Source: a virus. From it: DNA of 64,000 bases. Below are positions 2,107 to 59,228 of this stretch, piece after piece. The DNA lies in the IMG/VR virus record IMGVR_UViG_3300000553_000009, positions 62,316 to 126,315 of that record. One strand, 5' to 3'. A program made the position numbers and the translations under genes. The notes beneath the pieces are model-generated. The model searched no databases and was not told the DNA's origin. It saw only the letters and a list, made by a program, of their open reading frames with translations. Every line of letters begins with the position of its first letter. The first letter of the stretch is position 1.

Positions 2107-2493
2107 TCAATACATTTCATCGAAATTATCCTCTTCATCATCAGCATGGCGACACCCTATTGTATATTTTTCTAAAGTAGGATCAACATTTTGCAGAAGA
2201 TATATAACTGCTTTTTCCGTATTCTTTTTTAAGAGAAAAAGTGCTTTCTTGTTTTTTATTCCTTTGGTTTTCAATATTCCTTCCAAGGTTTTACATGCCT
2301 GAATCCCATTATCTACCATTGCCCCAAAATATGTAGGTAGTTCCGCCATTTCGTAAGGAAGAGTATTTGGGCCGGTGTGTGTTTCCTTTTCCTCTTTCTT
2401 AAATAACCGCATTTGTGTAGTAGGATCAAGATCATAATCTATCTCTCCTGATGCGAAACTTGTGGAATATGGGGATTGTCCTTTAGAAGCCAT
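2107..2493 (-). CDS. Hypothetical late protein
   Basis: 128-aa ORF preceded by TAAATA-N5-ATG (motif at 2499-2504, minus strand). Confidence 0.7.
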   Translation of the reverse strand: MASKGQSPYSTSFASGEIDYDLDPTTQMRLFKKEEKETHTGPNTLPYEMAELPTYFGAMVDNGIQACKTLEGILKTKGIKNKKALFLLKKNTEKAVIYLLQNVDPTLEKYTIGCRHADDEEDNFDEMY

Positions 2494-2525
2494 GTAATTA
2501 TTTAACTAAAATGCTAAATATATCC

Positions 2526-3053
2526 ATGAGAACTGATTTGTTTGCCCAGGCATTCCTAAAAGTATTAAAAGAAGCAGACCAACCTTCCTTGGAACGTAAG
2601 GCAATGGAAGGAACATTGGATAGTGGAACGAATCCAGAAGATTTTGATACTAACATGGATATGCCTGATCAAAATTCTCAAGAAGGTCCAGTAGGTGATG
2701 AAGTAGCCGATGCCATGTCTCGTAGAAATGAGCAAATGGTGAAAGAACTTCAAGTATGGATTGATGAAATCGAACAATTTTTAAATTTCCTTAATAGTGA
2801 AGAACCTACCAGTATTCAATCAAGACTTGCTGCTGCGGTTCCTGATACTGTCATGGATAAAATGAAGCAATCTCAACAGACTAAAATTAGTCGGGTTGCT
2901 TCAGACTTGGCATCGTTACACCAGAATTTCTTAGGATTCATGGCACAGACATCCAACTCTAGATATAAGTACGTGGCCATTCCTCTGACATTTGGGTTAA
3001 GCATTCTTGGAGGTTTGAGTATGATTGGTTCTGCTATCAGCAATTTCTGTTAA
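2526..3053 (+). CDS. Hypothetical late (probable virion) protein
   Basis: Start reassigned to ATG 2526 (MRTDLF...), which follows TAAATA (2515-2520) by 5 nt; acidic helical protein. Confidence 0.7.
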   Translation: MRTDLFAQAFLKVLKEADQPSLERKAMEGTLDSGTNPEDFDTNMDMPDQNSQEGPVGDEVADAMSRRNEQMVKELQVWIDEIEQFLNFLNSEEPTSIQSRLAAAVPDTVMDKMKQSQQTKISRVASDLASLHQNFLGFMAQTSNSRYKYVAIPLTFGLSILGGLSMIGSAISNFC

Positions 3054-3130
3054 TCCCCGGATTATACCTTTTTCAAAAAAATCCAGTAATTTATTACTGG
3101 ATTTTTCGCATCTTAGCACTAAATATTATT

Positions 3131-3376
3131 ATGAAAAAGAAAGATCAAGAAGCAATTACCAAGTTATATGTAGAGAATTATGGGCAGGGATTGGACGAAT
3201 TCGATCCCCATAATACTACAATGCCAGAGGGACCGCTAGAAAGAATTCAAACCAGTCTATTTGAGTTTGCCAATACTGTAGAAAATGCCGCACAAGACAA
3301 TGAATCTCATCATTTAGCTGCGTGTGTACAAGCTCTTAGAACCGCGTCACATTATTTGGCAGAGTATTTAAAGTAA
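3131..3376 (+). CDS. Hypothetical late protein
   Basis: TAAATA at 3120-3125, 5 nt before the ATG. Confidence 0.65.
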   Translation: MKKKDQEAITKLYVENYGQGLDEFDPHNTTMPEGPLERIQTSLFEFANTVENAAQDNESHHLAACVQALRTASHYLAEYLK

Positions 3377-8136: not shown

Positions 8137-9000
8137 TTATCTTTCTCCTATGAGTAGTTTTTGTTTTTCTATATATGCTAACCTAGATTTTCTCATATTT
8201 TCTCTAGCTTCCAATGACATTTTTCTACCTACATTCACTTGCCTTAATTTTTCCTTCGTTTCTTCTGTATGTACTCTACCTAGTTGGGATCGACTCATTT
8301 TTTGTTTAGTTTCTTCTGAATGAGTTTTTCCCAAATTTGCCAATCTCATATTTTCGACATGTTTTTCGGATTTGTGTTTTCCCAAGCTCGATTGACTCAT
8401 TTTCAATTTAGTTTCCTCTGACAGAATCATACCTAAATGTCCTTTGCCAATATTTTGCTTCCACTCCTCAGAAAATTCTGGTCTTGATTTTCCTAATTTA
8501 GACTGTCGCATTTTCACCAAAGCTTCTGGCGAATGTCCTTTATGTGGAACGCCGGTTTTAGTTTTCCGCATTTTTTCAATAGCTTCTTTGGATTTAGGTT
8601 TTCCTAAACTAGCTAAACTAATTTTCCTTCTGGTTTCTTCCGAGACAGTCAATCCGGTCCTATCCGTGGAATACTTACATATATTATAACCTTTATTTAC
8701 ATTTGTAGAATCAAACAATTCTATATAATAAGATTCTCTTTCAAGAAGTTTTTTATTGTCTTTAGTTTTATCAAAAACTTCAAATATTTCTAATATTTCT
8801 ACCGTAAAGGATGACCATCCATGTTTTTTAATAGCGTTCTGTATATAATATCCCTTAATACCTTTTCGGTTTTCAGAATTTTTATGTTGGTTCAATCGGA
8901 GATACAGGTTTACTGCCTTGCCTATATAAATTTTATTACTGCCTGTAGAAGTTAATTTATATACTCCTGCCTCTTTTGGATATTCATTTCTTGGTCCCAT
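8137..9000 (-). mobile_element. Free-standing GIY-YIG homing endonuclease with NUMOD3-type repeats
   Basis: GVYKL...KIYIGK, R..QH, ERESYYI, GYNIC and repeated HSEET/K.KMS motifs; own TAAATA-N5-ATG. Confidence 0.9.
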
Positions 9001-18755: not shown

Positions 18756-19631
18756 TTAATTCCCTTCAATTTCCTTAGACTGTTTACGTTTAATATTATT
18801 CTGTTTCATTTTCTCTTTAGATTCTAAGGAATGTTTCCTTCCAAGTCCCGCCTGTCTTAACTTTTCCTTATGTTCTTCGGAAAGTTTTCTCCCCGTTTTT
18901 GCAAAACTCATATTTTGTTTTGCTTTCTCCGATTTAGGTTTTCTCATTTTTTCTTTGGCTTCTTCGGAATGTGTTCTCCCAAGATTAACTTGTCTAAATT
19001 TTTCCTTGGTTTCCTCTGATTTAGGTTTTCTCATTTTTTGCTTCGCCTCTTCAGAATGTTTTTTCCCTAATCTGCTTAGACTCATTTTTTCTTTGGTTTC
19101 TTGAGAATGCTTTCTCCCCAATCCAGTAGATTTTCCTAATCTAACCCGACTCATTTTTTCTTTAGTTTCCTTAGAAGCAGTTTTTCCTAGTTTGGCTTGT
19201 CTATATTTTTGTTTTATTTCCTCTGATGGTATCTTCCCTCTATTAGAATCTCCTATTTTTCTTTTTGTTTCTTCGGAGACGGGCATTCCAGTTCTATCAG
19301 TGGAAAACTTACATATATTATATCCTATATCTATATTAGTGGAATCAAACAATTCAATATAATGGGATTCTCTTTCTAATAAGAAAGTATTATCTTTTAA
19401 TTTATCAAAATTATCAATTATTTCCAAAATTTCGACGGAAAACGATTTCCATCTATGTTTAATCAAGGCATATTGAAGATATGATAATCTTTTATTACCC
19501 TGTTTAACATTTCTATAATGATAGAGTCTTTTTCTAATATTAATTGATTTTCCAATATATATTTTTCCATTATTAATACAAGTTAGTTTGTAGACCCCGG
19601 CGACATTTGGATATTCTGGATGAGTTCCCAT
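18756..19631 (-). mobile_element. Free-standing GIY-YIG/NUMOD3 homing endonuclease
   Basis: GVYKLTC...KIYIGKS, ERESHYI, HSEE/HSQE repeats; TAAATA-N5-ATG. Confidence 0.9.
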
Positions 19632-29499: not shown

Positions 29500-30251
29500 A
29501 AATCAATTTTAATAACGGGGATTACTATATTAGTTTTTCTTTTAGATTCTCTTAATTTATCTTTATGTTCTTGAGAGAAAGGCTTGCCCAATTTGGCCAG
29601 TCTCATCTTTAATTTAGTTTCATCTGAGCGTTTCTTTCCTAGATTAGATTGTCTATTTTTTTCTTTAGATTCTTCAGTATGCTTCTTACCCATACGACTT
29701 TTTCTTATATTTTCTCTAGCTTCCTTGGATCTAGGTTGTCTCATCTTTTCCTTCGATTCTTCAGAATGAGTTTTTCCTAAATTATAATTTCTCATCTTTT
29801 CTCTATTCTCTTCAGTTGACATTTTATTTTTAATAGCTTCTTTATGATGATCAGATAAAGGCTTTCCGAGTTTAGCCTTGCTCATTTTTTCTTTTGTATC
29901 ATCTGAATGGACCAATCCGGTCCTATCTTGGGAATAGGTGCAGATATTGTATCCTATATCTTTATTAGTGGATTCAAATACTCCTATATAATATGCCTCC
30001 TTCTCTAATAAAAATTTATTATCTTTAGTTTTATCAAAATTTTCAAAAGTTTCTATAATTTCAACTACAAAAGAATTCCATCCATACTTTATAATCACAT
30101 TTTCAAAATAACATCTACCTTTAGATCTACGTTCACAGTATCTATGTGAATTTAATCGTTTATTTAAATTAATAGCTTTACCTATATATACTTTACCATT
30201 ATATATACAAGTTAATTTATAAATTCCCGCGACATTTGGATAGCTAGTCAT
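29496..30251 (-). mobile_element. Free-standing GIY-YIG/NUMOD3 homing endonuclease
   Basis: Start at 30251 (MTSYPNVAGIYKLTC), ATGA overlap with uvsW; KVYIGK, EKEAYYI, HSEE repeats. Confidence 0.9.
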
Positions 30252-36128: not shown

Positions 36129-36578
36129 ATGAAATCTTTCAAACTATATTTTGTAGAAAAAACTATTCTTGGTTTGGAAGAAACCATTTATATTGATGAA
36201 ATTGGACAACTTAAAGCAAAGCTCGATACTGGTAATGGCGCATTTAATGTTCTCCACGGGGAGGATATCCAACAAGATGGAAAACTTGTTCGCTTTACCA
36301 CCGACAAGGCAATCGTTTTGGAAAAGCCCATATCCAGTAGAATCACAATTAACCTTGGAGCAGGCAATACGGAAGAACGTCCGGTTGTCCTTCTGAATGT
36401 AAAAATTGGAAATAAGATTTTTAAAGACATTCCGTTTTCCATAGGAGACAGAAAAGATAATGTTCATAAGGTTCTAATTGGTAAGAATTTTATACAGACA
36501 AATCTCAACGCACTTGTGGATGTATCCTTGATAGATGTAGCCAGTAAAAATTTAGAGGCAGATTATAAAAATGTATGA
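36129..36578 (+). CDS. Retropepsin-like aspartic protease (RimK-associated 'Zn protease' family-like)
   Basis: KAKLDTGNG catalytic motif, ERPVV, FSIGDR...VLIGKNF. Confidence 0.8.
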   Translation: MKSFKLYFVEKTILGLEETIYIDEIGQLKAKLDTGNGAFNVLHGEDIQQDGKLVRFTTDKAIVLEKPISSRITINLGAGNTEERPVVLLNVKIGNKIFKDIPFSIGDRKDNVHKVLIGKNFIQTNLNALVDVSLIDVASKNLEADYKNV

Positions 36579-37330
36579 AATCATATCCAACAGGAGCGGG
36601 AATATATAAATTGACTTGTGTCAAGAATGGAAAGGTATATATAGGAAAGTCCGTTAATATTTATTTTAGACTTAGTTATCATAAAAGCTGTGAAAAAAAA
36701 TCTAAGGGGAGAGGATATTTTGAAAATTCTATAATAAAATATGGATGGGATTATTTTAATATCGAGATATTAGAAACTGTCGATAATTTTGATAAATTAA
36801 AAGACAACGTCGCTCTTCTTGAAAGAGAAGCATATTATATAAAATTATTTGATTCTACCAATACTTCTAAGGGATATAATATATGTTCGTATTCTACCGA
36901 TAGAACTGGAATACCAAATTCTGAAGAGACGAGAAAAAATATAAGTCAAGGTCAATTAGGACGAAAGCTTTCAGAAGAAACAAAAGAAAAGATTAGACAA
37001 TCTAGACTTGGAAAAGCCGGTACCCCCCATTCTGAAGCGACTAAAGAACACCTAAGACAAATTAATACTGGAAAAAAACTTTCAGAAGAACAGAAAAGTA
37101 AACTGAGACAATTTCGACTCGGGACAAAACACTCCGAAGAAACCAAATTAAAGTTAAGTTTGGCCAGAATTGGCAACTCTAATGCCCGTGGGTTTAAACA
37201 TTCAGAAGAGACTAAAGAAAAATGTAGGTTAGGTAAACTAAAAAGTAAGCAATCCACAACAGAACTTGATGCTCTAATTGATGTTAGTTTATTAAATGTA
37301 GCAGATAAGAATTTGGAGGTATCGGTATGA
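36575..37330 (+). mobile_element. GIY-YIG/NUMOD3 homing endonuclease ending in a copy of the protease C-terminus
   Basis: GIYKLTC...KVYIGKS; last ~24 aa align with the end of the upstream protease. Confidence 0.9.
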
Positions 37331-49981: not shown

Positions 49982-50032
49982 ATGATTAGAGTAGAAGACC
50001 AGCTTAAAAATACTAAATACATGAATGAGTGA
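49982..50032 (+). pseudogene. Orphaned 5' end of the gene now starting at 50872
   Basis: MIRVEDQLKN(TKYMNE*) vs MLRLDNQLKS. Confidence 0.6.
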
Positions 50033-50885
50033 TCATTCTAAATATCCAAAAGAGGCCGGTATCTATAAATTAACTTGTTCTGATAATGGAAAAGTGTATA
50101 TAGGAAAATCAGTAAACATTCATGTTAGACTTATAAACCATAAAAGTTATGAAAACAAGTCTAAAGGGAAATGTTATTTCCAAAATGCTATAATAAAATA
50201 TGGTTGGAACGCTTTCACGGTTGAAATACTAGAAATATTCGAAAATTTTGATAAGTTAAAAGATAACGATAGTCTTCTTTCAAGAGAATCATACTATATA
50301 GAACTATTTGATTCTGCCAATGTTGACAAAGGATACAACTTATGTAAATATTCTAATGATATGACTGGTCGAAAACTTTCCGAAGAAACGAAAGAAAAAA
50401 TGAGAAAGCCTAAATCCGAGGAACATATAGCAAAAATGAGAAATCGCCCGTGTTCAAAAGAAACAAGAGATAAAATAAGACAGTCTCAGATAGGAAGACA
50501 ACACTCCGAAGAATCTAAAGAAAAAATGAGAAGGGCGAATATAGGAAAAAAATTATCTGAAGAAACTAAAGAAAAAATAGGAAAGGCTGGAAAGGGGAGA
50601 CGACACTCCAAAGAAGCTAAAGAGAAAATGAGACTAGCTAATATGGGAAAAAAACACTCCGAAGAAACCAAAGAAAAACTTCGAAATATATCCGAAGAAA
50701 AGAGAGAAGAAACAAGACAAATGGGAAAGTCAAACTTGGGCAGAAAACACTCCGATGAAACCAAGAAAAAAATAAGCGAAGCCGGAAAGAAAAACTCTGG
50801 GAAACATCACTCGGAAGAAACAAAAGAGAAAATGAGATTATCTCACCAGAAACGATGGAATATAAAAAAATATGCTACGACTTGA
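50025..50885 (+). mobile_element. Free-standing GIY-YIG/NUMOD3 homing endonuclease
   Basis: GIYKLTC...KVYIGKS, RESYYI, many HSEE repeats; TAAATA-N5-ATG. Confidence 0.9.
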
Positions 50886-51207
50886 CAACCAACTAAAAAG
50901 TTTAATATTTAAACATGTGGATTTTCAATTGGATGGGAAATCCATTAAGAAAGGAAAAATTCAAATATTCAATACTAAACAATTTTTCATAAAGTTTAAA
51001 TTAGATAATGGAGGAGATATTAAAGAATATGAGTTGCCCTATCCTTTTAAAGTCGTAAAAATTCCAAATGGATATTTGTTTGATTATTCCTTATCTGCAT
51101 TCATTCCAAGAACTGAAGAAATGTATTGGAAAATGAAATGTATGAACAAATCAGAAGCTTCCAAGCTTCATGACAGTTATCTCTACGTTTTGACACTTTC
51201 CTCTTGA
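50872..51207 (+). CDS. Hypothetical beta-rich protein
   Basis: 111 aa, overlaps the endonuclease stop by 14 nt. Confidence 0.65.
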   Translation: MLRLDNQLKSLIFKHVDFQLDGKSIKKGKIQIFNTKQFFIKFKLDNGGDIKEYELPYPFKVVKIPNGYLFDYSLSAFIPRTEEMYWKMKCMNKSEASKLHDSYLYVLTLSS

Positions 51208-51231
51208 TTTGAATCAAAATCGTGGTAAAGT
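51204..51231 (+). promoter_or_regulatory. Sigma70-type promoter with extended -10
   Basis: TTGATT-N16-TAAAGT with TG upstream of the -10; ATG 51239 follows after 7 nt. Confidence 0.55.
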
Positions 51232-51238
51232 CGAACAA

Positions 51239-52849
51239 ATGACAGGACTTTTACTCAACTTTCCCGAAGGATACGAACCAAACAATGCACAGAAAATCAT
51301 TCTCACTAAGATGGAAAAAGCCATCGGAGAGAATAAAAAATTCATAATTGTGAATGCACCAACTGGAAGTGGTAAAAGTTTACTTCCCAAAACATTGGCA
51401 AATGTTGTAAATGGTCCATCCGAAAATTTTAAAAAATGTGTAGATAACTATTCAATTTTTGGAGATGATGGCCCAGATTTAATGGAAGATGAAAATTTTG
51501 GAGTTTATGCATTGACAATAACCAAAGCATTACAAGATCAATATAAAAATACTTTTCCTGATACTGGAATCTTAAAAGGGCAAGGAAATTATCAATGTGG
51601 ATTAGATGATTCCATGACAGTTGATATTGCCCCTTGCATATATGTGAAAGGGTTAAAACAAGATTGTTGGAAATGTAATAAATGTCCATACTATAATCAT
51701 AGAAATGAAATGCTTAAGAGTACTTTTTCCTCTTTAAATTATAGTATGTTTTTTTCCCTTCCGTCTCATTTGAGAAAAAGAAAAGTTATTGTGTGTGATG
51801 AGGGATCGGAATTGGAAGATCAATTGATAAATCTTTTTACATGTGAAGTGGATTTACCATTTTTAGTAAAAACGAATACGGAAGTTTCATCATTTCCAAT
51901 GCAGGAAACAGATCAAAAAGTCTTAGCATGGGCAACTTCATTACTTAGAAGTGTTGCCGATAATGTGGAAAATTATAAAGATCTTATCAAAAATGAAAAA
52001 CGAGGAATTGATTTATCTAAAAGACGTTCCGAATATACTAAACTGACCAATCTTCAAAAATCCTTGGAGACACTGATTCATACTTATTATGATGCTCAAT
52101 ATCTTATAGAGCGTATAGATAAAAAGATAAGATTTATCCCACTTAAAATAGATAAACTTTCCAAATTCATTTTTGATTGCGCGGAACATGTGGTTATTAT
52201 GTCTGCTACCATTATTGATCCTGTCAACTTTTGTAAAAACTTAGGAATAACAGATTATGAATATATTGAAGTATCCACTGGATTTGATCCAGAGAAAGCT
52301 CCAATATATGTAATGGTAAAACAGAAATTAAATTTTGGAAATCTTAAGGATATGTTGCCCAAACTGGCAACACAAGTAGCAGGGTTATTGGAAGAACATA
52401 AAAATGAAAAGGGAATCATACACACTCACACCCAGTATATTACAGATTATATTAAAGATAATGTTCATTCGTCCAGGTTACTTTGTAGGGCGCCGGGAGT
52501 TCGCAATGAAGAGCTACTTGACATGCATGAACAAAGTCCACACGCGACAGTTTTGGTGTCTCCAAGCATGACCTACGGAGTTGACCTTCACGGTGATTTG
52601 GCAACTTTTCAAATTCTTTTAAAAGCTCCATGGTTGCCAACAAAAGAGATAAGGGTTGAAAAAATGATGAAACTTGATAAATCGTGGTACACTAATAAAA
52701 TGCTGTGTACTTTGGTTCAAGCATGCGGAAGAGGAATACGATCCCTCGATGATGAATGTATCACTTATATTTTAGATGGGTCCATTTACGATACGATAGA
52801 AGAAAACAAACAAAAACTTCCAAAATTCTTTATAGATAGATTTCAATGA
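51239..52849 (+). CDS. DinG/XPD-like SF2 helicase with Fe-S-type Cys cluster
   Basis: APTGSGKS, KALQDQY, LKGQGNYQC...C...C..C..CPY, DEGS, MSAT, GVDL, KAPW, QACGRGIRS.DD. Confidence 0.9.
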   Translation: MTGLLLNFPEGYEPNNAQKIILTKMEKAIGENKKFIIVNAPTGSGKSLLPKTLANVVNGPSENFKKCVDNYSIFGDDGPDLMEDENFGVYALTITKALQDQYKNTFPDTGILKGQGNYQCGLDDSMTVDIAPCIYVKGLKQDCWKCNKCPYYNHRNEMLKSTFSSLNYSMFFSLPSHLRKRKVIVCDEGSELEDQLINLFTCEVDLPFLVKTNTEVSSFPMQETDQKVLAWATSLLRSVADNVENYKDLIKNEKRGIDLSKRRSEYTKLTNLQKSLETLIHTYYDAQYLIERIDKKIRFIPLKIDKLSKFIFDCAEHVVIMSATIIDPVNFCKNLGITDYEYIEVSTGFDPEKAPIYVMVKQKLNFGNLKDMLPKLATQVAGLLEEHKNEKGIIHTHTQYITDYIKDNVHSSRLLCRAPGVRNEELLDMHEQSPHATVLVSPSMTYGVDLHGDLATFQILLKAPWLPTKEIRVEKMMKLDKSWYTNKMLCTLVQACGRGIRSLDDECITYILDGSIYDTIEENKQKLPKFFIDRFQ

Positions 52850-52912: not shown

Positions 52913-54040
52913 ATGACACAGTTAATAACACAATTACTAAAACAAATAACTTGGATTGATAGAAATATAAAAATTCCCCGTGAATATGCTATGAAACCTG
53001 ATTATCCATCAGAGTTTCAACAATATTTTGGAACTACTCCTTTCGCATCCTTAAAGTTCGATAAAATTCTCTATAGAAATAAGTTTAAAAGCTTTGTGAA
53101 GTATCTCATGGATTTGGATTTTGTGCCGGTTCAAATGGGAACGTCATCATTCAAATTAGTGAACTTTCATAGAAATATTTTAATTGTGGGAGAGATTGCG
53201 GACATCATTAAAGAAGAATCAGAGGAGGAAGAAGAGCAAGGATATGCTGTTAATAATAACGAAGAGGTATTTGTTTCTTTTTATCCAACTATGGAAAATA
53301 AAGGATTTGTCACTGAACTTATTAAAAAAGTTGATTCTAAGTTTTTAAGAGAAGAGTTGATTGTTCGTAATAAGTTTTTCATGGTGGCACAGAATCAAAG
53401 AGGTTTATATTCTCAAAGGACCACATTTAAAGCAATTCCTATTAAGGATGATAGATATGATTTATTTTACGGTAAAAAGTTTCCCCACGAAGATTTTAAA
53501 AAGTTCATAACAGATGAAACTGAACATTTAATGTTATTTTATGGAGAACCAGGCACAGGCAAGTCAAATTATCTCAAAAATCTTATAATCAATTCCAGAA
53601 AGAATGTTATATACATTCCACCGGGAATGTTAAGGGTGATTTCTTCTCCAGATTTTGTATCTTATGTGATGGAAAATAAAAATAGTATTTTGATTGTAGA
53701 AGACGCAGAAGATGTTCTTTCAATAGATAGGAACGCTGCGACAACAAATCTATTACAAATTTGCGACGGATTTTTACGCGACTGCCTCAACTTGAAGGTA
53801 CTGGCAACTTTTAACGCGCCTATAAGTAAAATTGATCCAGCTTTATTACGTAAAGGGAGATTATATATGAGTCATGAATTTGTAAAATTAACTCCCAGCG
53901 AATCTAATAAATTGGCGGATTTCTGTGGAATAAATTATAATTTTACGGAGGATTCTTCATTGGCGGAAATTTTTAATGTTAAGAAATCTACTTCTGCTCT
54001 ATCCAAACCTACTACTGCTATTGGTTTTGGAAACTTTTAA
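52913..54040 (+). CDS. AAA+ ATPase with N-terminal domain
   Basis: YGEPGTGKS, LIVEDAE, ATFN, IDPALLRKGR. Confidence 0.88.
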   Translation: MTQLITQLLKQITWIDRNIKIPREYAMKPDYPSEFQQYFGTTPFASLKFDKILYRNKFKSFVKYLMDLDFVPVQMGTSSFKLVNFHRNILIVGEIADIIKEESEEEEEQGYAVNNNEEVFVSFYPTMENKGFVTELIKKVDSKFLREELIVRNKFFMVAQNQRGLYSQRTTFKAIPIKDDRYDLFYGKKFPHEDFKKFITDETEHLMLFYGEPGTGKSNYLKNLIINSRKNVIYIPPGMLRVISSPDFVSYVMENKNSILIVEDAEDVLSIDRNAATTNLLQICDGFLRDCLNLKVLATFNAPISKIDPALLRKGRLYMSHEFVKLTPSESNKLADFCGINYNFTEDSSLAEIFNVKKSTSALSKPTTAIGFGNF

Positions 54041-55068
54041 ATTTCGTTCGATGAATCAGACTCATTTAAGAGTTTTAGTTTTAAAACACGTCTTTGTTTA
54101 TTAGAATTTCTTATTTTTTGTTTAGTTTCCTCACTATGCGGAAATCGTTTTCTATTCTTTTGAGCAATAGACATTTTTAACTTAGACTCTTCGGACATAG
54201 GGATTCCTTTTTTCAGGCTGGGTTTGCCTTTCCGAGAAATAGACATTTTCATTCTGGATTCTTCTGATACCGATTTTCCTTTTCTTGGACTGGCTTTTCC
54301 CTTATGGGCATTCGAAATTTTTAACTTAGTTTCTTCAGACATAGGAGAACGAGTTTTTCCTTTTCGAGCTAAAGACATTTTGAGTTTTGTTTCCTCTGTA
54401 TGTTTTCGCCCTCTAACGGAATCAGCTAATTTTTGGCGATGTTCAGGAGTTCTACACTTAGCTTTATCCGATAGATATTGTCTTTGCTCCGGTGTTAAAT
54501 TTAATTTTTTCCCTTTATTGATATTAGGAATTCCTTTCCGCAATCCCGCCAATCGTTGACGTTCCTCTTCTGAGCAAGATTTACCGAAATTATGGTGATT
54601 CTCTCCCGATCTGGCCAATGACATATTATTTCTAGCTTCCAATGACATTTTAGTTCCTAGTTTAAGAGAAGACATTCTTTGTTTGCACTCTTCGGTATGT
54701 TTAAATCCTTTATTAGATTCTACTCTTTTTCGTTTAGTTTCTTCGGATTGAACTATTCCAGTCGGATCTATTCCTCTGGCAGATATATTATATCCATTAG
54801 GAACTAACGAATTATATCTTACTATCATTTGTTCTTCTAAGTCTAATAAACTTTCCTTGTCAAAATCTGGAAGATAATATATTTCTAATTCAAAGTTTTC
54901 CTTTCCATATTTTTCTATGGCTTTTCTTATAATTTGCGTATTGGGTCTATTATGTTGGGCCATCCTTCTTTTCATGTTACTAGTCTCCCCGATATAGTAT
55001 TTGTCATTCACAATACATCTCATAATGTAAACTCCTGCTCGTCTCTCAAATACATCTGTTAATTTCAT
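54037..55068 (-). mobile_element. GIY-YIG/NUMOD3 endonuclease of RHH cassette 1
   Basis: GVYIM...YYIGET, LEEQMI, VPNGYN, basic SEE repeats. Confidence 0.88.
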
Positions 55069-55073
55069 AATAA

Positions 55074-55208
55074 TTATTTTAAATAGTTTTCTAATAGCCT
55101 TTTAATAACCTCAGACATGGTTATCCCAGTGTCCTTGGCGTTTTGTCTTAATTTTTCTTTCATAATTTTAGTTAGAAAGACTTCTATTTTTTCTTTATTG
55201 GTGGGCAT
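55074..55208 (-). CDS. Ribbon-helix-helix (CopG-like) protein, 44 aa, not in the ORF track
   Basis: MPTNKEKIEVFLTKIMKEKLRQNAKDTGITMSEVIKRLLENYLK; TAAATA-N5-ATG. Confidence 0.75.
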   Translation of the reverse strand: MPTNKEKIEVFLTKIMKEKLRQNAKDTGITMSEVIKRLLENYLK

Positions 55209-55284
55209 AATATTATTTAGCTTTTTTCGTCATGTTTTTTTCATGATTAAGTTTAAACTAAATACCATGGTATAAATAGGAGTA

Positions 55285-55353
55285 GTGCAGAGATATTCCT
55301 ATCACAAAGAGCAACTTCAAATGCTAACACAATTTGTGGCGGCATTTGAATAG
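55285..55353 (+). pseudogene. Orphaned 5' end of gp15 behind a TATAAATA late promoter
   Basis: GTG-QRYSYHKEQLQMLTQFVAAFE* vs gp15 MEKYAYYREQMSMLTQFSAAFDG (12/22 identical). Confidence 0.8.
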
Positions 55354-55397
55354 TTAAAAATCCTTTTTATAGTACCGCGGGATACGAATTAATTCGT

Positions 55398-56063
55398 TTA
55401 ATTCATTAATTCATTTAATTGTTGTAATAATTGAGAAAGTTTTTTTCTTTTTTGATCAATTCTTATTTTTTCTTTATGCTCTGGTGATTGCTTTCGACCT
55501 TTTAATGGACTGATCTTTCCTCTATGTGAAAGGGATTGTTTCAATCTCCATTGAGAGGATCTTGGAGGGTGTGTTCTTCCGACCTGCGACCGGGACATTT
55601 GTTCTCTGGTTTCTATAGATAATGGCCCCTTTAATTTACCCTTTTTTCTGTCGGACATTTTTTTCTTAGTTTCATCAGAAAATATTCTTTTGGGATTATC
55701 TATCCATGATTGTTTTATTTTAAAAATGGCCTCTGGAGTATGTTTATATCCAGTACTATCATTTCCCCGTTTTGATATATTATAACCGAACGGCACCAAA
55801 GAATTAAACTTTATAATTAGTTGTTCTTCTAAGTCTAATAAGTCACATTTTTTAAAATATGAAAAATATTCCACGTATACACTAAAATTATCAATCCCAT
55901 ATTTTTTAATGGCGCTATGGATTACTTGATTTCCGATAGCGTTTCGATGAGTAAAAAGTCTTTCTTTTATATCTACGCTCTCTCCAATATAGTATTTATG
56001 ATTTATATTATTCTGTATAATATAAATCCCCGGTATACGATTAAATGTATCAGTAAGTTTCAT
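55398..56063 (-). mobile_element. GIY-YIG/NUMOD3 endonuclease of RHH cassette 2
   Basis: GIYII...YYIGES, LEEQLI, VPFGYN; same MKLTD.F.R start as cassette 1. Confidence 0.88.
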
Positions 56064-56205
56064 GTTGTGTTTTGAAATATTGTTCTAATGCACGCTTAAT
56101 GACCTCTCCCATAGTTATACCCAACTGATTAGCATTATCTTTGATCTTTGTTTTAGAATCTTCGGATATAAATACTTCTATTTTTTTCTTTTTCATTTTT
56201 TCCAT
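56050..56205 (-). CDS. Ribbon-helix-helix (CopG-like) protein, 51 aa
   Basis: Start reassigned to 56205: MEKMKKKKIEVFISEDSKTKIKDNANQLGITMGEVIKRALEQYFKTQHETY; TAAATA (56211-56216)-N5-ATG. Confidence 0.75.
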   Translation of the reverse strand: MEKMKKKKIEVFISEDSKTKIKDNANQLGITMGEVIKRALEQYFKTQHETY

Positions 56206-56218
56206 ATAAGTATTTAGC

Positions 56219-56261
56219 ATTTTTCCAGATTTTTTCCAGATTTTTTCCAGATTTTTTCCAG
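56219..56261 (-). repeat. Four tandem 11-bp direct repeats (CTGGAAAAAAT)
   Basis: Three exact copies plus one with one fewer A, abutting the RHH late promoter. Confidence 0.9.
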
Positions 56262-56301
56262 TAATAATTATATTTAGTATCAACATACTAAATATTTTCA
56301 C

Positions 56302-57378
56302 ATGGAAAAATACGCATATTATAGAGAACAGATGAGTATGCTTACTCAATTTTCAGCGGCTTTCGATGGAGCTTTTCTTTATAGATATTCACTTGATGGG
56401 ACTCCACAGGAAAAAATATCTGTCCGATATGTAATGGGGCCAAAACAAAGAGTATTATATGATATTGTAAGTCAAGCTAAAAATATAACTCTTCCCGTAA
56501 TTGCCATGGAACAGACAAATATTAGAAGAGATTCTTCTCGTATTCAGTTTAAGGACCAAAAGATTACGCGACCTAATATGTCCAATCGGAACATATCAAA
56601 GGTTCCATCGCCCGTTCCAGTTATGTGCGACTTGAATGTTTCCTTCATCGCCAATTATAAGGAAGACGTAGATCAAATAGTATCCAACTTTATACCCTGG
56701 TGTAATCCATATTTTATAATTTCATGGAAAGTTCCGCCTGATTTTGGAATGGATTTCATTGATGAACTGAGAACAGAAGTGTCTTGGTCAGGTACGGTGG
56801 ATTATGAAAATCCAGTAAATATTGCCGCGCAAGACAAATATAAAATAGTTGGAAATACATCATTTACTATTAAAGGATGGATATTTCCTGCATTAGAGAC
56901 TCCTCAAGCTCCAATTTATGTAATAAATTCAAATTTTATATCTGTATCATCTGGAAGTCTTTTTAGTTATAATACTTGGGAAACATTATCATCATATGAT
57001 TCTACTGATACCATTTTAATTTCGGCATATCCGGAGATAACTAATTCTTTCTATAATGGAAAACCATATTATGATAATCCTACAATATCTACCAATAATG
57101 ATAGCAACTTTACATATTATGGTAAACGATTCGGATTTAATAATTCTTGGTATCTTTCTGGTAATTATGTCGCTCCTTTGATACTGGAGGAAATAGATAC
57201 ATTCAAATTTCCCACTATTTCCGCATATAGACTTCCAGATAGTTTTATAACAACGGTCAATGACAACATTGCGGTCATTTCTTTAAGTTCCAGATATCTC
57301 TCTGCGGGGTCGTTTACAATTGTAACATCTAATTCCGCTGGTTGGGTATCATCTCCAAATGTAATAACTATTATATAA
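56302..57378 (+). CDS. gp15: Tail terminator / sheath stabilizer (gp15-like) with C-terminal extension
   Basis: V.Y.MGPKQR, LPVIA, R.SSR, PVP...LNV......DQIVSNFIPW.NPY, FTIKGWIFP. Confidence 0.85.
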   Translation: MEKYAYYREQMSMLTQFSAAFDGAFLYRYSLDGTPQEKISVRYVMGPKQRVLYDIVSQAKNITLPVIAMEQTNIRRDSSRIQFKDQKITRPNMSNRNISKVPSPVPVMCDLNVSFIANYKEDVDQIVSNFIPWCNPYFIISWKVPPDFGMDFIDELRTEVSWSGTVDYENPVNIAAQDKYKIVGNTSFTIKGWIFPALETPQAPIYVINSNFISVSSGSLFSYNTWETLSSYDSTDTILISAYPEITNSFYNGKPYYDNPTISTNNDSNFTYYGKRFGFNNSWYLSGNYVAPLILEEIDTFKFPTISAYRLPDSFITTVNDNIAVISLSSRYLSAGSFTIVTSNSAGWVSSPNVITII

Positions 57379-57413: not shown

Positions 57414-59228
57414 ATGGCGAATACTATGAATAATCCGAATAATCGGAGTAATTTAAGCAGGGACGGTAAATCGGGCATGTATGATCGCTCATTGACCTCC
57501 TATTTAAAAAATAGATTGCCATATAATTATAGTGTTTTGGATTCCGATGATTCCAAAAATACCAAATATAAGTATTTCCAAAAGGTTGGAATGCGTCGTC
57601 CAGAGGCGATTGCTAAGAATTCCATAACCCTTTCCAATGACTTTAATAATACCGCTTACTCTTCTATTGAAAGAGATAAAAGCTTCGGAGAAGTCATGTA
57701 TGCCGCCGCTTCTGAGGATAAACCTGGAAGAATGCGCGATTACCGCACTATGGCAGCATTCTCAGAGATTAATGATGCTCTGAATGAAATAGCGGATGAA
57801 ACCATAAATGTCGATGATAACGATCAGATAGTTTTACTCAAAATAAAAAATGCAGACTTGGACTCGGATCAAAAGGAAACATTGATGACTGAGTTCGATA
57901 AGTATATCGAACATTTTGATCTACCTAATAATGGATGGAAATATTTTAAGACATTCCTAGTAGAGGGGGAATTATTTTTCGAACAGATAATTCATAAGGA
58001 TTATGTAAATCAGGGTGTTCTTGGAATTGTTAATATTCCTTCCGAAATGATAGATCCCGTATATTCCAATATTCAAAATATGTTGGTAAAAGGATATCTT
58101 TATCAAAAACCTATTTTTGATAAAAACGATCCAAAAAAGATTGAAAAATATGAACCTATTCCCTTCGAGGAAAATCAGGTGGTATATATTAACAATTCGG
58201 AATATAACGAGACAAAAGAATTCATTGTTCCATATATTGAAAATGCCCGTAGAGCGTATAGGCAATTATCGATGATTGAAGATTCCATTGTAATTCATAG
58301 AATGGTCCATGCTCCTCTTCGGTTTGTGTTTAATGTAGATGTGGGACGATTGCCGGTCCCACAAGCGGAAGCATATCTAAGAAAACTTCAATCACAATAT
58401 TGGTCAACTAAAACATTTGATGCGGACCAGGGCGATATCGTAAAGAAATATAGTCCTCAATCCACTTTAGATTCTTATTGGTTCGCTAAGAAACAAGGTC
58501 AAGAGGCAACCTCAGTTCAAGAAATTGGAGGAACTCCGGGTTTAGGGGAACTGGCGGATTTAATGTTTTTTATTAAAAAACTTTATAGATCACTGGGAGT
58601 GCCCACATCGAGATTAGATCCAGAAGATTCATTTCGAGATGGTACAGATATTTTAAGAGAAGAATTAAAGTTTGATACCATGATTATGAGGCAACAAAAG
58701 AAATTTGCTTCTGGTCTTAAAAGAGGATTTATAACTCATTTAAAATTCAGGGAATTATTTGATGAATACGATTTAACTGAACAAAATATTAGTATTACAT
58801 TCAATCCGCCCTCCAATTTTCATGATCTTAGAAATAATCAAAAACTAGAGCTTAAGATTAATTCTTTCAATAATCTTATAAGTACGGGAAAAATTTCTAC
58901 TACATTAGGATTGAAAAAGGTTATGGGATGGCAAGATAAAGAAATTCTTGCAAATCGGGAGTTTCTTCGCAAAGACAGTGCTCTTGAGTGGGAGTTGGCA
59001 CAGATAACATCTCTAGGGCCAGCATGGAAGAAACAATTATTAGATCAAGCTAATGCCGGTGCTCCTCCTGCCGAGGGAGATTTGGGGGGAGGAGCTGGGG
59101 GAGGAGCCGCTATACCCTCATTTGGGGGAGGGCCAGTAGATATAGGAGGGGAAGAAGCTCCAGTTCCCCCGCCCAATGCGGGAAATCCTCCTGTGGCTCC
59201 AGCAGTTCCAGAAGAACCTCCGACTTAA
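57414..59228 (+). CDS. gp20: Portal protein (gp20)
   Basis: YR.MA..SEI.DA..EI, FLVEGE, QLSMIEDSIVIHR..HAP.R.VFNVDVG.LP..QAE.YL, YWFAK, KKLYRSL.VP.SRL. Confidence 0.97.
   Translation: MANTMNNPNNRSNLSRDGKSGMYDRSLTSYLKNRLPYNYSVLDSDDSKNTKYKYFQKVGMRRPEAIAKNSITLSNDFNNTAYSSIERDKSFGEVMYAAASEDKPGRMRDYRTMAAFSEINDALNEIADETINVDDNDQIVLLKIKNADLDSDQKETLMTEFDKYIEHFDLPNNGWKYFKTFLVEGELFFEQIIHKDYVNQGVLGIVNIPSEMIDPVYSNIQNMLVKGYLYQKPIFDKNDPKKIEKYEPIPFEENQVVYINNSEYNETKEFIVPYIENARRAYRQLSMIEDSIVIHRMVHAPLRFVFNVDVGRLPVPQAEAYLRKLQSQYWSTKTFDADQGDIVKKYSPQSTLDSYWFAKKQGQEATSVQEIGGTPGLGELADLMFFIKKLYRSLGVPTSRLDPEDSFRDGTDILREELKFDTMIMRQQKKFASGLKRGFITHLKFRELFDEYDLTEQNISITFNPPSNFHDLRNNQKLELKINSFNNLISTGKISTTLGLKKVMGWQDKEILANREFLRKDSALEWELAQITSLGPAWKKQLLDQANAGAPPAEGDLGGGAGGGAAIPSFGGGPVDIGGEEAPVPPPNAGNPPVAPAVPEEPPT

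Follow-up and report, generated by a model that had tools for sequence, protein, structure and literature searches.

Homing endonucleases that are encoded outside introns have been studied most closely in T-even phages. The free-standing endonucleases of T4 cut DNA away from their own gene, and one-sided, illegitimate repair of double-strand breaks at sites of microhomology is likewise on record (PMC2988022). The T4 endonuclease I-TevI represses itself at its own late promoter (PMC2988022). In phage T6, SegB drives the formation of tandem units, and the junction between units joins the target DNA to the 3' side of segB (PMC13096335). A related phenomenon is described in fungal mitochondria, where the so-called mORFs (in atp6 of Allomyces and in atp6, atp9, cox2 and nad3 of Glomus) are endonuclease open reading frames that bring with them a foreign C-terminus of the host gene. 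The incoming gene end becomes the expressed copy, and the native end is left behind as a diverged remnant (PMC3630166). Here we describe the gp15 (tail sheath stabiliser) locus of an uncultured, T4-like phage, in which the 5' end of gp15 is duplicated across a cassette that encodes a ribbon-helix-helix (RHH) protein and a GIY-YIG homing endonuclease. The locus lies in a stretch of 64,000 nucleotides (nt), called the window below, which is the final part of the 126-kb, metagenome-assembled virus contig IMGVR_UViG_3300000553_000009 of IMG/VR. The contig is estimated to be 61% complete, and the G+C content of the window is 33%.

The functional gp15 gene is recognised both by Pfam (T4-gp15_tss, PF16724, E 4.4e-12, 46.2 bits against a cut-off of 25, residues 13–212) and by PHROG (family 227, tail sheath stabilizer, 1.2e-11). 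Upstream of it, the initial annotation had pointed out the box TATAAATA (55271–55278, plus strand) and a short frame running from a GTG at 55285 to a TAG at 55351–55353, which was said to resemble the beginning of gp15 at 56302. All these coordinates turned out to be correct, and the resemblance of the 22-codon frame to the gp15 start was confirmed by a profile built without the window. The remnant and the functional start are identical at 12 of 22 residues and at 41 of 69 bases. The profile, a hidden Markov model of the first 22 gp15 residues of 17 relatives, was searched against all six frames of the window and found only two matches, the remnant with 44.3 bits (E 1.5e-12) and the functional start with 40.8 bits (E 1.9e-11). 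No third match appeared in the six frames, the next best having an E-value of 0.9. A tblastn search of the window with gp15 also recovered the remnant, at E 1e-4. As judged by the profile score, the remnant is nearer to the family consensus than the working gp15 start is. It contains the motif LTQFVAAF exactly as it occurs in several relatives, and its layout of TAAATA, 6 nt and GTG is that of most close relatives. The homology stops at codon 22: the 50 bases after the remnant, aligned to codons 22–50 of the 17 relatives, reach a score of 9 against a shuffle mean of 10.7. With a similarity far beyond chance, the 22-codon frame is best read as the displaced original start of gp15.

The minus-strand cassette of an RHH gene and a GIY-YIG gene that had been placed between the two gp15 copies is real. 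Its endonuclease (GIY2) is identified as GIY-YIG with NUMOD3 by Pfam, and its small partner (RHH2) as an RHH protein by PHROG and by fold. However, the earlier description did not include a second, diverged cassette of like kind (GIY1 and RHH1), which lies directly upstream of the remnant at 54037–55208. The window therefore holds two tandem units, each composed of an endonuclease gene, an RHH gene, operator-like repeats, a late promoter box and a gp15 start. We refer to the upstream cassette as cassette 1 and to the one between the gp15 starts as cassette 2. GIY1 and GIY2 are 43% identical, and RHH1 and RHH2 are 57% identical. GIY2 is closer to the enzyme of a relative, locus L013 (61–64% identical), than to GIY1, and the closest homologue of RHH1 is the RHH protein of locus L007 (64% identical). 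Both endonucleases match Pfam PF01541 and NUMOD3, and the invariant GIY-YIG columns include G12, Y14, Y24-Y25, G27, R35, E79 and N95. A phmmer search with GIY2 gave no match among PDB sequences, and a metagenome scan with the endonuclease alignment yielded 19 loci, none of which is a closer donor. Since the endonucleases and the RHH proteins are so diverged while the unselected remnant stays near the consensus, the two units evidently derive from different phage lineages and not from one unit that was duplicated locally and then diverged. About 22 residues present in its relatives are missing from GIY2, whose final residues align with the family tail. A C-terminal truncation of GIY2 at the junction was considered and not upheld, given that alignment of the tail; an internal deletion is equally likely.

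The nearest cultured phages, found by a protein search of a cultured-phage collection, are cyanophages and pelagiphages with a gp15 only about 26% identical, and a DNA search of that collection gave no match, so that all useful comparison comes from uncultured virus contigs. Relatives of gp15 that are 50–75% identical were found on 80 such contigs (50–76% for the full-length homologues), and alignment searches with the endonuclease and RHH proteins added more loci, which are numbered here with the prefix L. The usual gene order is helicase-(AAA)-gp15-portal, present in 57 distinct cassette-free loci. The gp15 promoter box in relatives lies a few bases past the upstream stop codon. About a dozen distinct loci carry one RHH and GIY-YIG cassette, always on the opposite strand and between the upstream stop codon and the gp15 promoter. 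The left neighbour of the cassette varies (helicase in L007 and L013, AAA in the L083 and L163 groups), and its right neighbour at these loci is gp15 in every case, which ties the module to the gp15 side. A cassette that occupies one and the same site in about a dozen distinct loci and is lacking at 57, in relatives that are otherwise syntenic, behaves as a mobile element.

Among the loci compared, the duplication itself is confined to the window's genome. When the N-terminus profile was run over the six-frame translations of loci L001–L207, 71 of which contain a gp15 start, a second gp15 start in a short frame was found only there. No relative among these loci carries both copies, be it with or without a cassette. 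The proposal of the initial annotation that a cassette had invaded gp15 at about codon 22 holds in so far as cassette 2 sits within the former gene at codon 22. It needs correcting as regards the family, whose normal home is intergenic, before the gp15 promoter; among the about a dozen distinct loci with a cassette the window is the exception. Similarly, the new promoter and the recoded start ascribed to the invader fit all tests, but instead of a single invading cassette there are two in tandem, each with a promoter and a gp15 start.

The position of the breakpoint may be informative. In a comparison of 23 distinct alleles, codons 17–22 form the highest-information DNA block of the first 40 gp15 codons, and the homology of the remnant ends at the 3' edge of this block. 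Within its 18 nt the functional copy has 7 differences from the consensus, the most of any of the 23 alleles, and the remnant has 3, including the final base ahead of the break. In L007, in the L083 group and in the remnant itself, whose alleles go with modules of the cassette-1 type, the block is near the consensus. Such a pattern would be expected if the consensus block is recognised or cut by the endonuclease of cassette 2 and if the genome encoding this enzyme has a resistant block. The codon-22 breakpoint would offer a concrete prediction of a cleavage site, and the remnant and the functional copy a pair of sensitive and resistant substrates.

We put a probability of about 60% on the following origin of the locus: a break near codon 22 was repaired one-sidedly, and in the process a second homing module was copied in, which brought a cassette, a promoter and the 5' end of gp15 in recoded form. 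The background to this proposal is a two-gene selfish module (RHH and GIY-YIG, with its own late promoter and adjacent operator-like repeats) that would home just upstream of gp15 and point away from it. The lineage would already have held cassette 1, followed by the gp15 promoter and a gene of the consensus type, when a mixed infection brought in a phage with the diverged cassette 2 and a recoded gp15. The gp15 gene of the cassette-1 genome would then have been broken at or next to codon 22, most likely by the endonuclease of cassette 2. The right-hand end could have been repaired on the partner by means of the homology within gp15. The left-hand end would have been without homology nearby, since the partner had other DNA at the upstream place taken by cassette 1, and an illegitimate joining may have connected it to a point just past the GIY2 3' end. 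Synthesis would have run through cassette 2, the repeats, the partner's promoter and its first 22 codons. The expected outcome is cassette 1, the old promoter with codons 1–22, cassette 2, the new promoter with recoded codons 1–22, and the rest of gp15. Which enzyme cut, exactly where it cut, in which direction DNA was transferred and whether repair was one-sided are read here from the arrangement of the sequence. By analogy, each of the proposed steps has a laboratory precedent. If the proposal holds, a homing module that meets an occupied site would be stacked upon the resident one rather than replace it, and arrays of endonuclease genes in tandem, as well as new promoter arrangements next to structural genes, could arise in this way.

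Several observations weigh against this origin. L013, the closest locus of the GIY2 type, is without a remnant, so that the usual outcome of homing by this module would be a clean intergenic insertion. The outlier status of the functional allele is a matter of rank 1 among 23, which is weak statistically. Furthermore, a sliding-window comparison of gp15 with the 17 relatives revealed no mosaic breakpoint by which a co-conversion tract could be recognised; for this the relatives, at most 76% identical, are too distant.

The same final structure would be produced by a chance illegitimate crossover between a cassette-1 phage and a cassette-2 phage, at codon 22 and just past GIY2, with no break made by an endonuclease. 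Illegitimate recombination does occur in T4-type phages (PMC2988022). We nevertheless regard such a crossover as unlikely: the break falls on the edge of the best conserved DNA block of the 5' region, the surviving functional allele is the most deviant in that very block, and two more endonuclease genes in the window adjoin duplicated gene ends, which suggests that the endonucleases are causal.

Altogether, three of the seven GIY-YIG genes in the window are found next to duplicated gene ends (55285–56370, 49982–50901 and 36498–37330). At 49982, ten orphan codons stand just before a plus-strand GIY-YIG gene (50025–50885). They match the family consensus start of a 111-residue gene that now begins at 50872, and the short motif ahead of them is the one that precedes this gene in relatives. 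The working start of the 111-residue gene is embedded in the 3' end of the endonuclease gene; in relatives, the genes flanking this site are about 35 nt apart. The third case concerns a C-terminus. The last approximately 20 residues of the GIY-YIG frame at 36575–37330 reproduce the C-terminus of the upstream 150-residue gene (14 of 20 match), and the frame closes with the native GTATGA, through which it overlaps the next gene just as is seen in cassette-free relatives, from which it follows that the tail of the endonuclease is the old gene end. In L215 and L212 (around 2438–3250) an endonuclease occupies the equivalent site with a comparable remnant. The 150-residue gene upstream of 36575 has no PHROG match, and its name "protease" is unconfirmed. 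We tentatively suggest, as something possible rather than probable, that GIY-YIG modules in this clade routinely travel with a recoded end of the target gene (in the 5' case together with its promoter) and that the displaced native ends are left as fossils.

The promoter boxes of the locus share a positional signature. The hexamer TAAATA is followed after 4–9 nt (usually 5) by the start of an open reading frame of at least 40 codons at 26 of its 102 sites in the genome, as compared to 4–11% for permuted hexamers. The box thus appears to behave as a promoter set directly against gene starts. It is present at both RHH genes, at several other endonuclease genes, at gp15 and at the portal gene, and late genes, those for endonucleases included, seem to be almost without a leader. 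No intrinsic terminator is predicted between the old gp15 box and gp15. Late transcripts from the old promoter, antisense to cassette 2 and continuing into gp15, are therefore plausible, since the box is intact and no terminator is predicted on the way; a recent event would explain just as well why the box is intact.

These features raise the question of whether the remnant and its promoter have been kept because they are useful. The promoter might serve gp15 as a second one further upstream, antisense RNA arising there might damp the endonuclease operon, or the 22-residue peptide might have a role. The perfect box, the uninterrupted 22-codon frame, the lack of a predicted terminator ahead of gp15 and a perfect 9-base-pair stem with an inner 4-pair stem predicted within the remnant RNA (z of the region's folding only −2.1) would be in line with a function. 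Yet a recent event accounts for the intactness equally well, the arrangement occurs in no relative, so that there is no conservation to argue for selection, and GIY2 is already broken in another assembly, which fits decay better than regulation. We consider such usefulness improbable. As a terminator the hairpin was rejected, both for its modest z of −2.1 and for the lack of a U-run immediately after it. A joining of the remnant to gp15 by translational bypass or by splicing was discarded because the functional gene has a complete start of its own and the gap is 1 kb. Finally, a group I intron or another structured RNA around the cassette was rejected, the endonuclease being on the opposite strand and no Rfam match being found at E 0.1.

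It is very improbable that one unit (cassette, promoter and gp15 codons 1–22) was duplicated in tandem within a single genome, in the manner of SegB amplification, and that the two copies diverged afterwards. It is true that the head-to-tail layout resembles the tRNA-segB repeats of T6, including the junction of target DNA with the 3' side of the endonuclease (PMC13096335). However, the two endonucleases differ at 57% of residues, which is above the divergence of gp15 across the whole sampled clade, and GIY2 is nearer to the L013 enzyme (61–64%) than to GIY1. Over such a time the unselected remnant would have decayed long ago, whereas it outscores the functional start against the family profile.

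An assembly chimera joining two strain variants, which might come to mind because the record is a metagenome-assembled contig and both cassette types exist in related phages, is hardly credible, since the junction has no shared repeat that could mislead an assembler and identical AAA, GIY1, RHH1 and gp15 proteins together with fragments of GIY2 map to one or more 8413-nt contigs of other source. In an exact protein look-up, AAA, GIY1, RHH1 and gp15 were each found on several contigs from other sources, the longest being 8413 nt each time. GIY2 is represented by two pieces, residues 1–118 and 136–221 (proteins P0122 and P0124), on a contig of 8413 nt from another assembly. The simplest reading suggests one independent contig with both cassettes and a broken GIY2, which argues against a chimera. 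Part of the population probably contains a decaying GIY2, which would be expected of an endonuclease once no sites are left for it to invade. An exact search of IMG/VR for the 26-nt junction gave no match, the window's own genome being possibly outside the searched set.

The two RHH proteins differ in how readily they are recognised. RHH1 passes the Pfam RHH_1 threshold (26 bits against 20.5), whereas RHH2 stays below it with 16.8 bits but matches PHROG repressor families (8e-7). The AlphaFold model of RHH2 (pLDDT 87) displays an extended N-terminal segment followed by helices 15–28 and 32–50. Its best fold matches are the RHH domains of CopG, PutA, an antitoxin, omega and Arc at a probability of 0.99, but the E-values are weak, the protein being very small. 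Direct repeats lie immediately next to the TAAATA box of the RHH gene in all eleven cassettes examined. Ten of the eleven have two direct repeats of about 11–12 nt, each with an A-run and then TCATG in the RHH sense, and three of these ten lie in a quite different gene context. The eleventh, cassette 2 of the window, has four exact 11-nt repeats with a changed motif. Outside the window, repeat-bearing RHH genes are those of L007, L013, L083, L163, L181, L182, L184, L185, L186 and L188. The cassette looks like an autoregulated operon with a putative operator specific to the module. In L182 and L184 (3489–4393) an RHH and GIY-YIG cassette with a like operator layout and a different C-terminal region lies between a 189-residue gene and a 460-residue gene; the latter is unrelated to gp15, so that the two-gene module is not confined to the gp15 site.

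The features of the locus are collected in Table 1.

Table 1. Features of the gp15 locus in the order in which they occur in the window
Feature	Position	Strand	Evidence or remark
DNA helicase gene	51209–52849		
AAA ATPase gene, left neighbour	52913–54040	+	Pfam AAA E 3e-9; stop overlaps GIY1 stop; precedes gp15 or the cassette in relatives too
GIY1, 343-residue GIY-YIG homing endonuclease with NUMOD3 repeats (cassette 1)	54037–55068	−	Pfam GIY-YIG 6.5e-14, NUMOD3 1e-37; PHROG homing endonuclease
RHH1, 44-residue ribbon-helix-helix protein (cassette 1)	55074–55208	−	Pfam RHH_1 26 bits, cut-off 20.5
CTAAATA box, late-promoter-like, 5 nt ahead of RHH1 ATG	55214–55220	−	TAAATA-N5-ATG is the positional signature of the genome
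Two direct operator-like repeats (T-run then CATG) abutting the RHH1 promoter box	55221–55246		Paired repeat at the equivalent place in ten other cassettes
TATAAATA, old gp15 late promoter box	55271–55278	+	Exact match; 6-nt gap to GTG as in relatives
gp15 5' remnant: GTG and 21 more codons, then TAG (55351–55353)	55285–55353	+	N-terminus profile 44.3 bits, E 1.5e-12
44-nt junction spacer, remnant to GIY2 stop	55354–55397		No gp15 homology past codon 22; no predicted terminator
GIY2, 221-residue GIY-YIG homing endonuclease (cassette 2)	55398–56063	−	Pfam GIY-YIG 1.4e-10, NUMOD3 6.7e-13
RHH2, 51-residue ribbon-helix-helix protein (cassette 2)	56050–56205	−	Stop overlaps GIY2 start; PHROG transcriptional repressor 8e-7
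CTAAATA box 5 nt ahead of RHH2 ATG	56211–56217	−	TAAATA-N5-ATG signature
Four exact 11-nt direct repeats between two divergent promoters; candidate RHH2 operator	56220–56262		Repeat family D7
CTAAATA box 7 nt ahead of functional gp15 ATG	56288–56294	+	TAAATA signature
Functional gp15, tail sheath stabiliser, 358 residues	56302–57378	+	Pfam, PHROG; homologues full-length
T4-type portal gene, downstream of gp15	57414–59228		

Three further GIY-YIG genes of the window lie at 8200–9000, 18783–19631 and 29535–30245, and the seven copies of the 126-kb record all belong to the half covered by the window, the first 62 kb containing none. The surroundings of gp15 also vary among relatives at two other places. 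In three of them the helicase gene is interrupted by about 0.9 kb (L004 2215–4746, L019 3057–5570 and L020 2191–4737). The interruption comes after the residue that matches G53 of the window's helicase, inside the P-loop, and could be an intein, an intron or an endonuclease insertion. The gap between gp15 and the portal gene holds 0.8–5.5 kb of extra DNA in L004, L007, L008, L014, L015 and L019, as against 25–40 nt in the window and most other loci; the portal side of gp15 is thus a variable site as well.

In general, the locus resembles the intronless homing of SegF, SegG and SegB in T-even phages (PMC2988022): a free-standing GIY-YIG gene is located between conserved genes, has a patchy distribution and possesses a late promoter of its own. 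A cut at some distance in the neighbouring gene and co-conversion of flanking markers would be expected here as well. Unlike these systems, the module contains a small, separate RHH gene and operator-like repeats besides the endonuclease gene, and two diverged modules are stacked with a piece of the target gene and its promoter left between them. The amplification of SegB in T6 is similar in that the tandem unit comprises an endonuclease gene and adjacent target DNA, with the junction at the 3' side of the endonuclease (PMC13096335). The repeats of T6, however, are identical and were made in one genome under selection, whereas the proteins of the two units described here are 43–57% identical. 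If our proposal is correct, the locus would be a natural, datable footprint of free-standing homing endonucleases remodelling essential phage genes, and would exemplify in a phage from nature a process that has been seen in laboratory crosses of T4 and in fungal mitochondria.

With regard to self-limitation, an operator-like sequence directly against the late promoter of the endonuclease gene recalls I-TevI (PMC2988022) and suggests that expression limits itself here as well. In contrast to I-TevI, which uses its own DNA-binding domain, the presumed repressor is here a protein apart from the endonuclease, of the CopG-like RHH type, and its gene comes first in the operon. The recurrence of the RHH, operator and late-promoter design in eleven cassettes suggests that a separate repressor is another solution to the same problem.

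As in the mORFs, an endonuclease gene stands between the expressed copy and the displaced copy of one gene end, and this is so at all three sites in the window. Limited text searches found no description of mORF-like duplicated gene ends in phages. Should the tentative generalisation about GIY-YIG modules of this clade be true, they would be the phage counterpart of fungal mitochondrial mORFs and selfish endonucleases would in this way be able to enter essential structural genes without harm. The gp15 modules would then add a further layer, namely a dedicated CopG-like repressor and operator repeats that change together with the module. The site at 36498–37330 appears to be the direct counterpart of a mORF, at a C-terminal end. 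The gp15 case differs from the mORFs in being their mirror image, in that it involves the 5' end of the gene and its promoter, the endonuclease is on the opposite strand with no in-frame fusion, and the host of the module is a phage.

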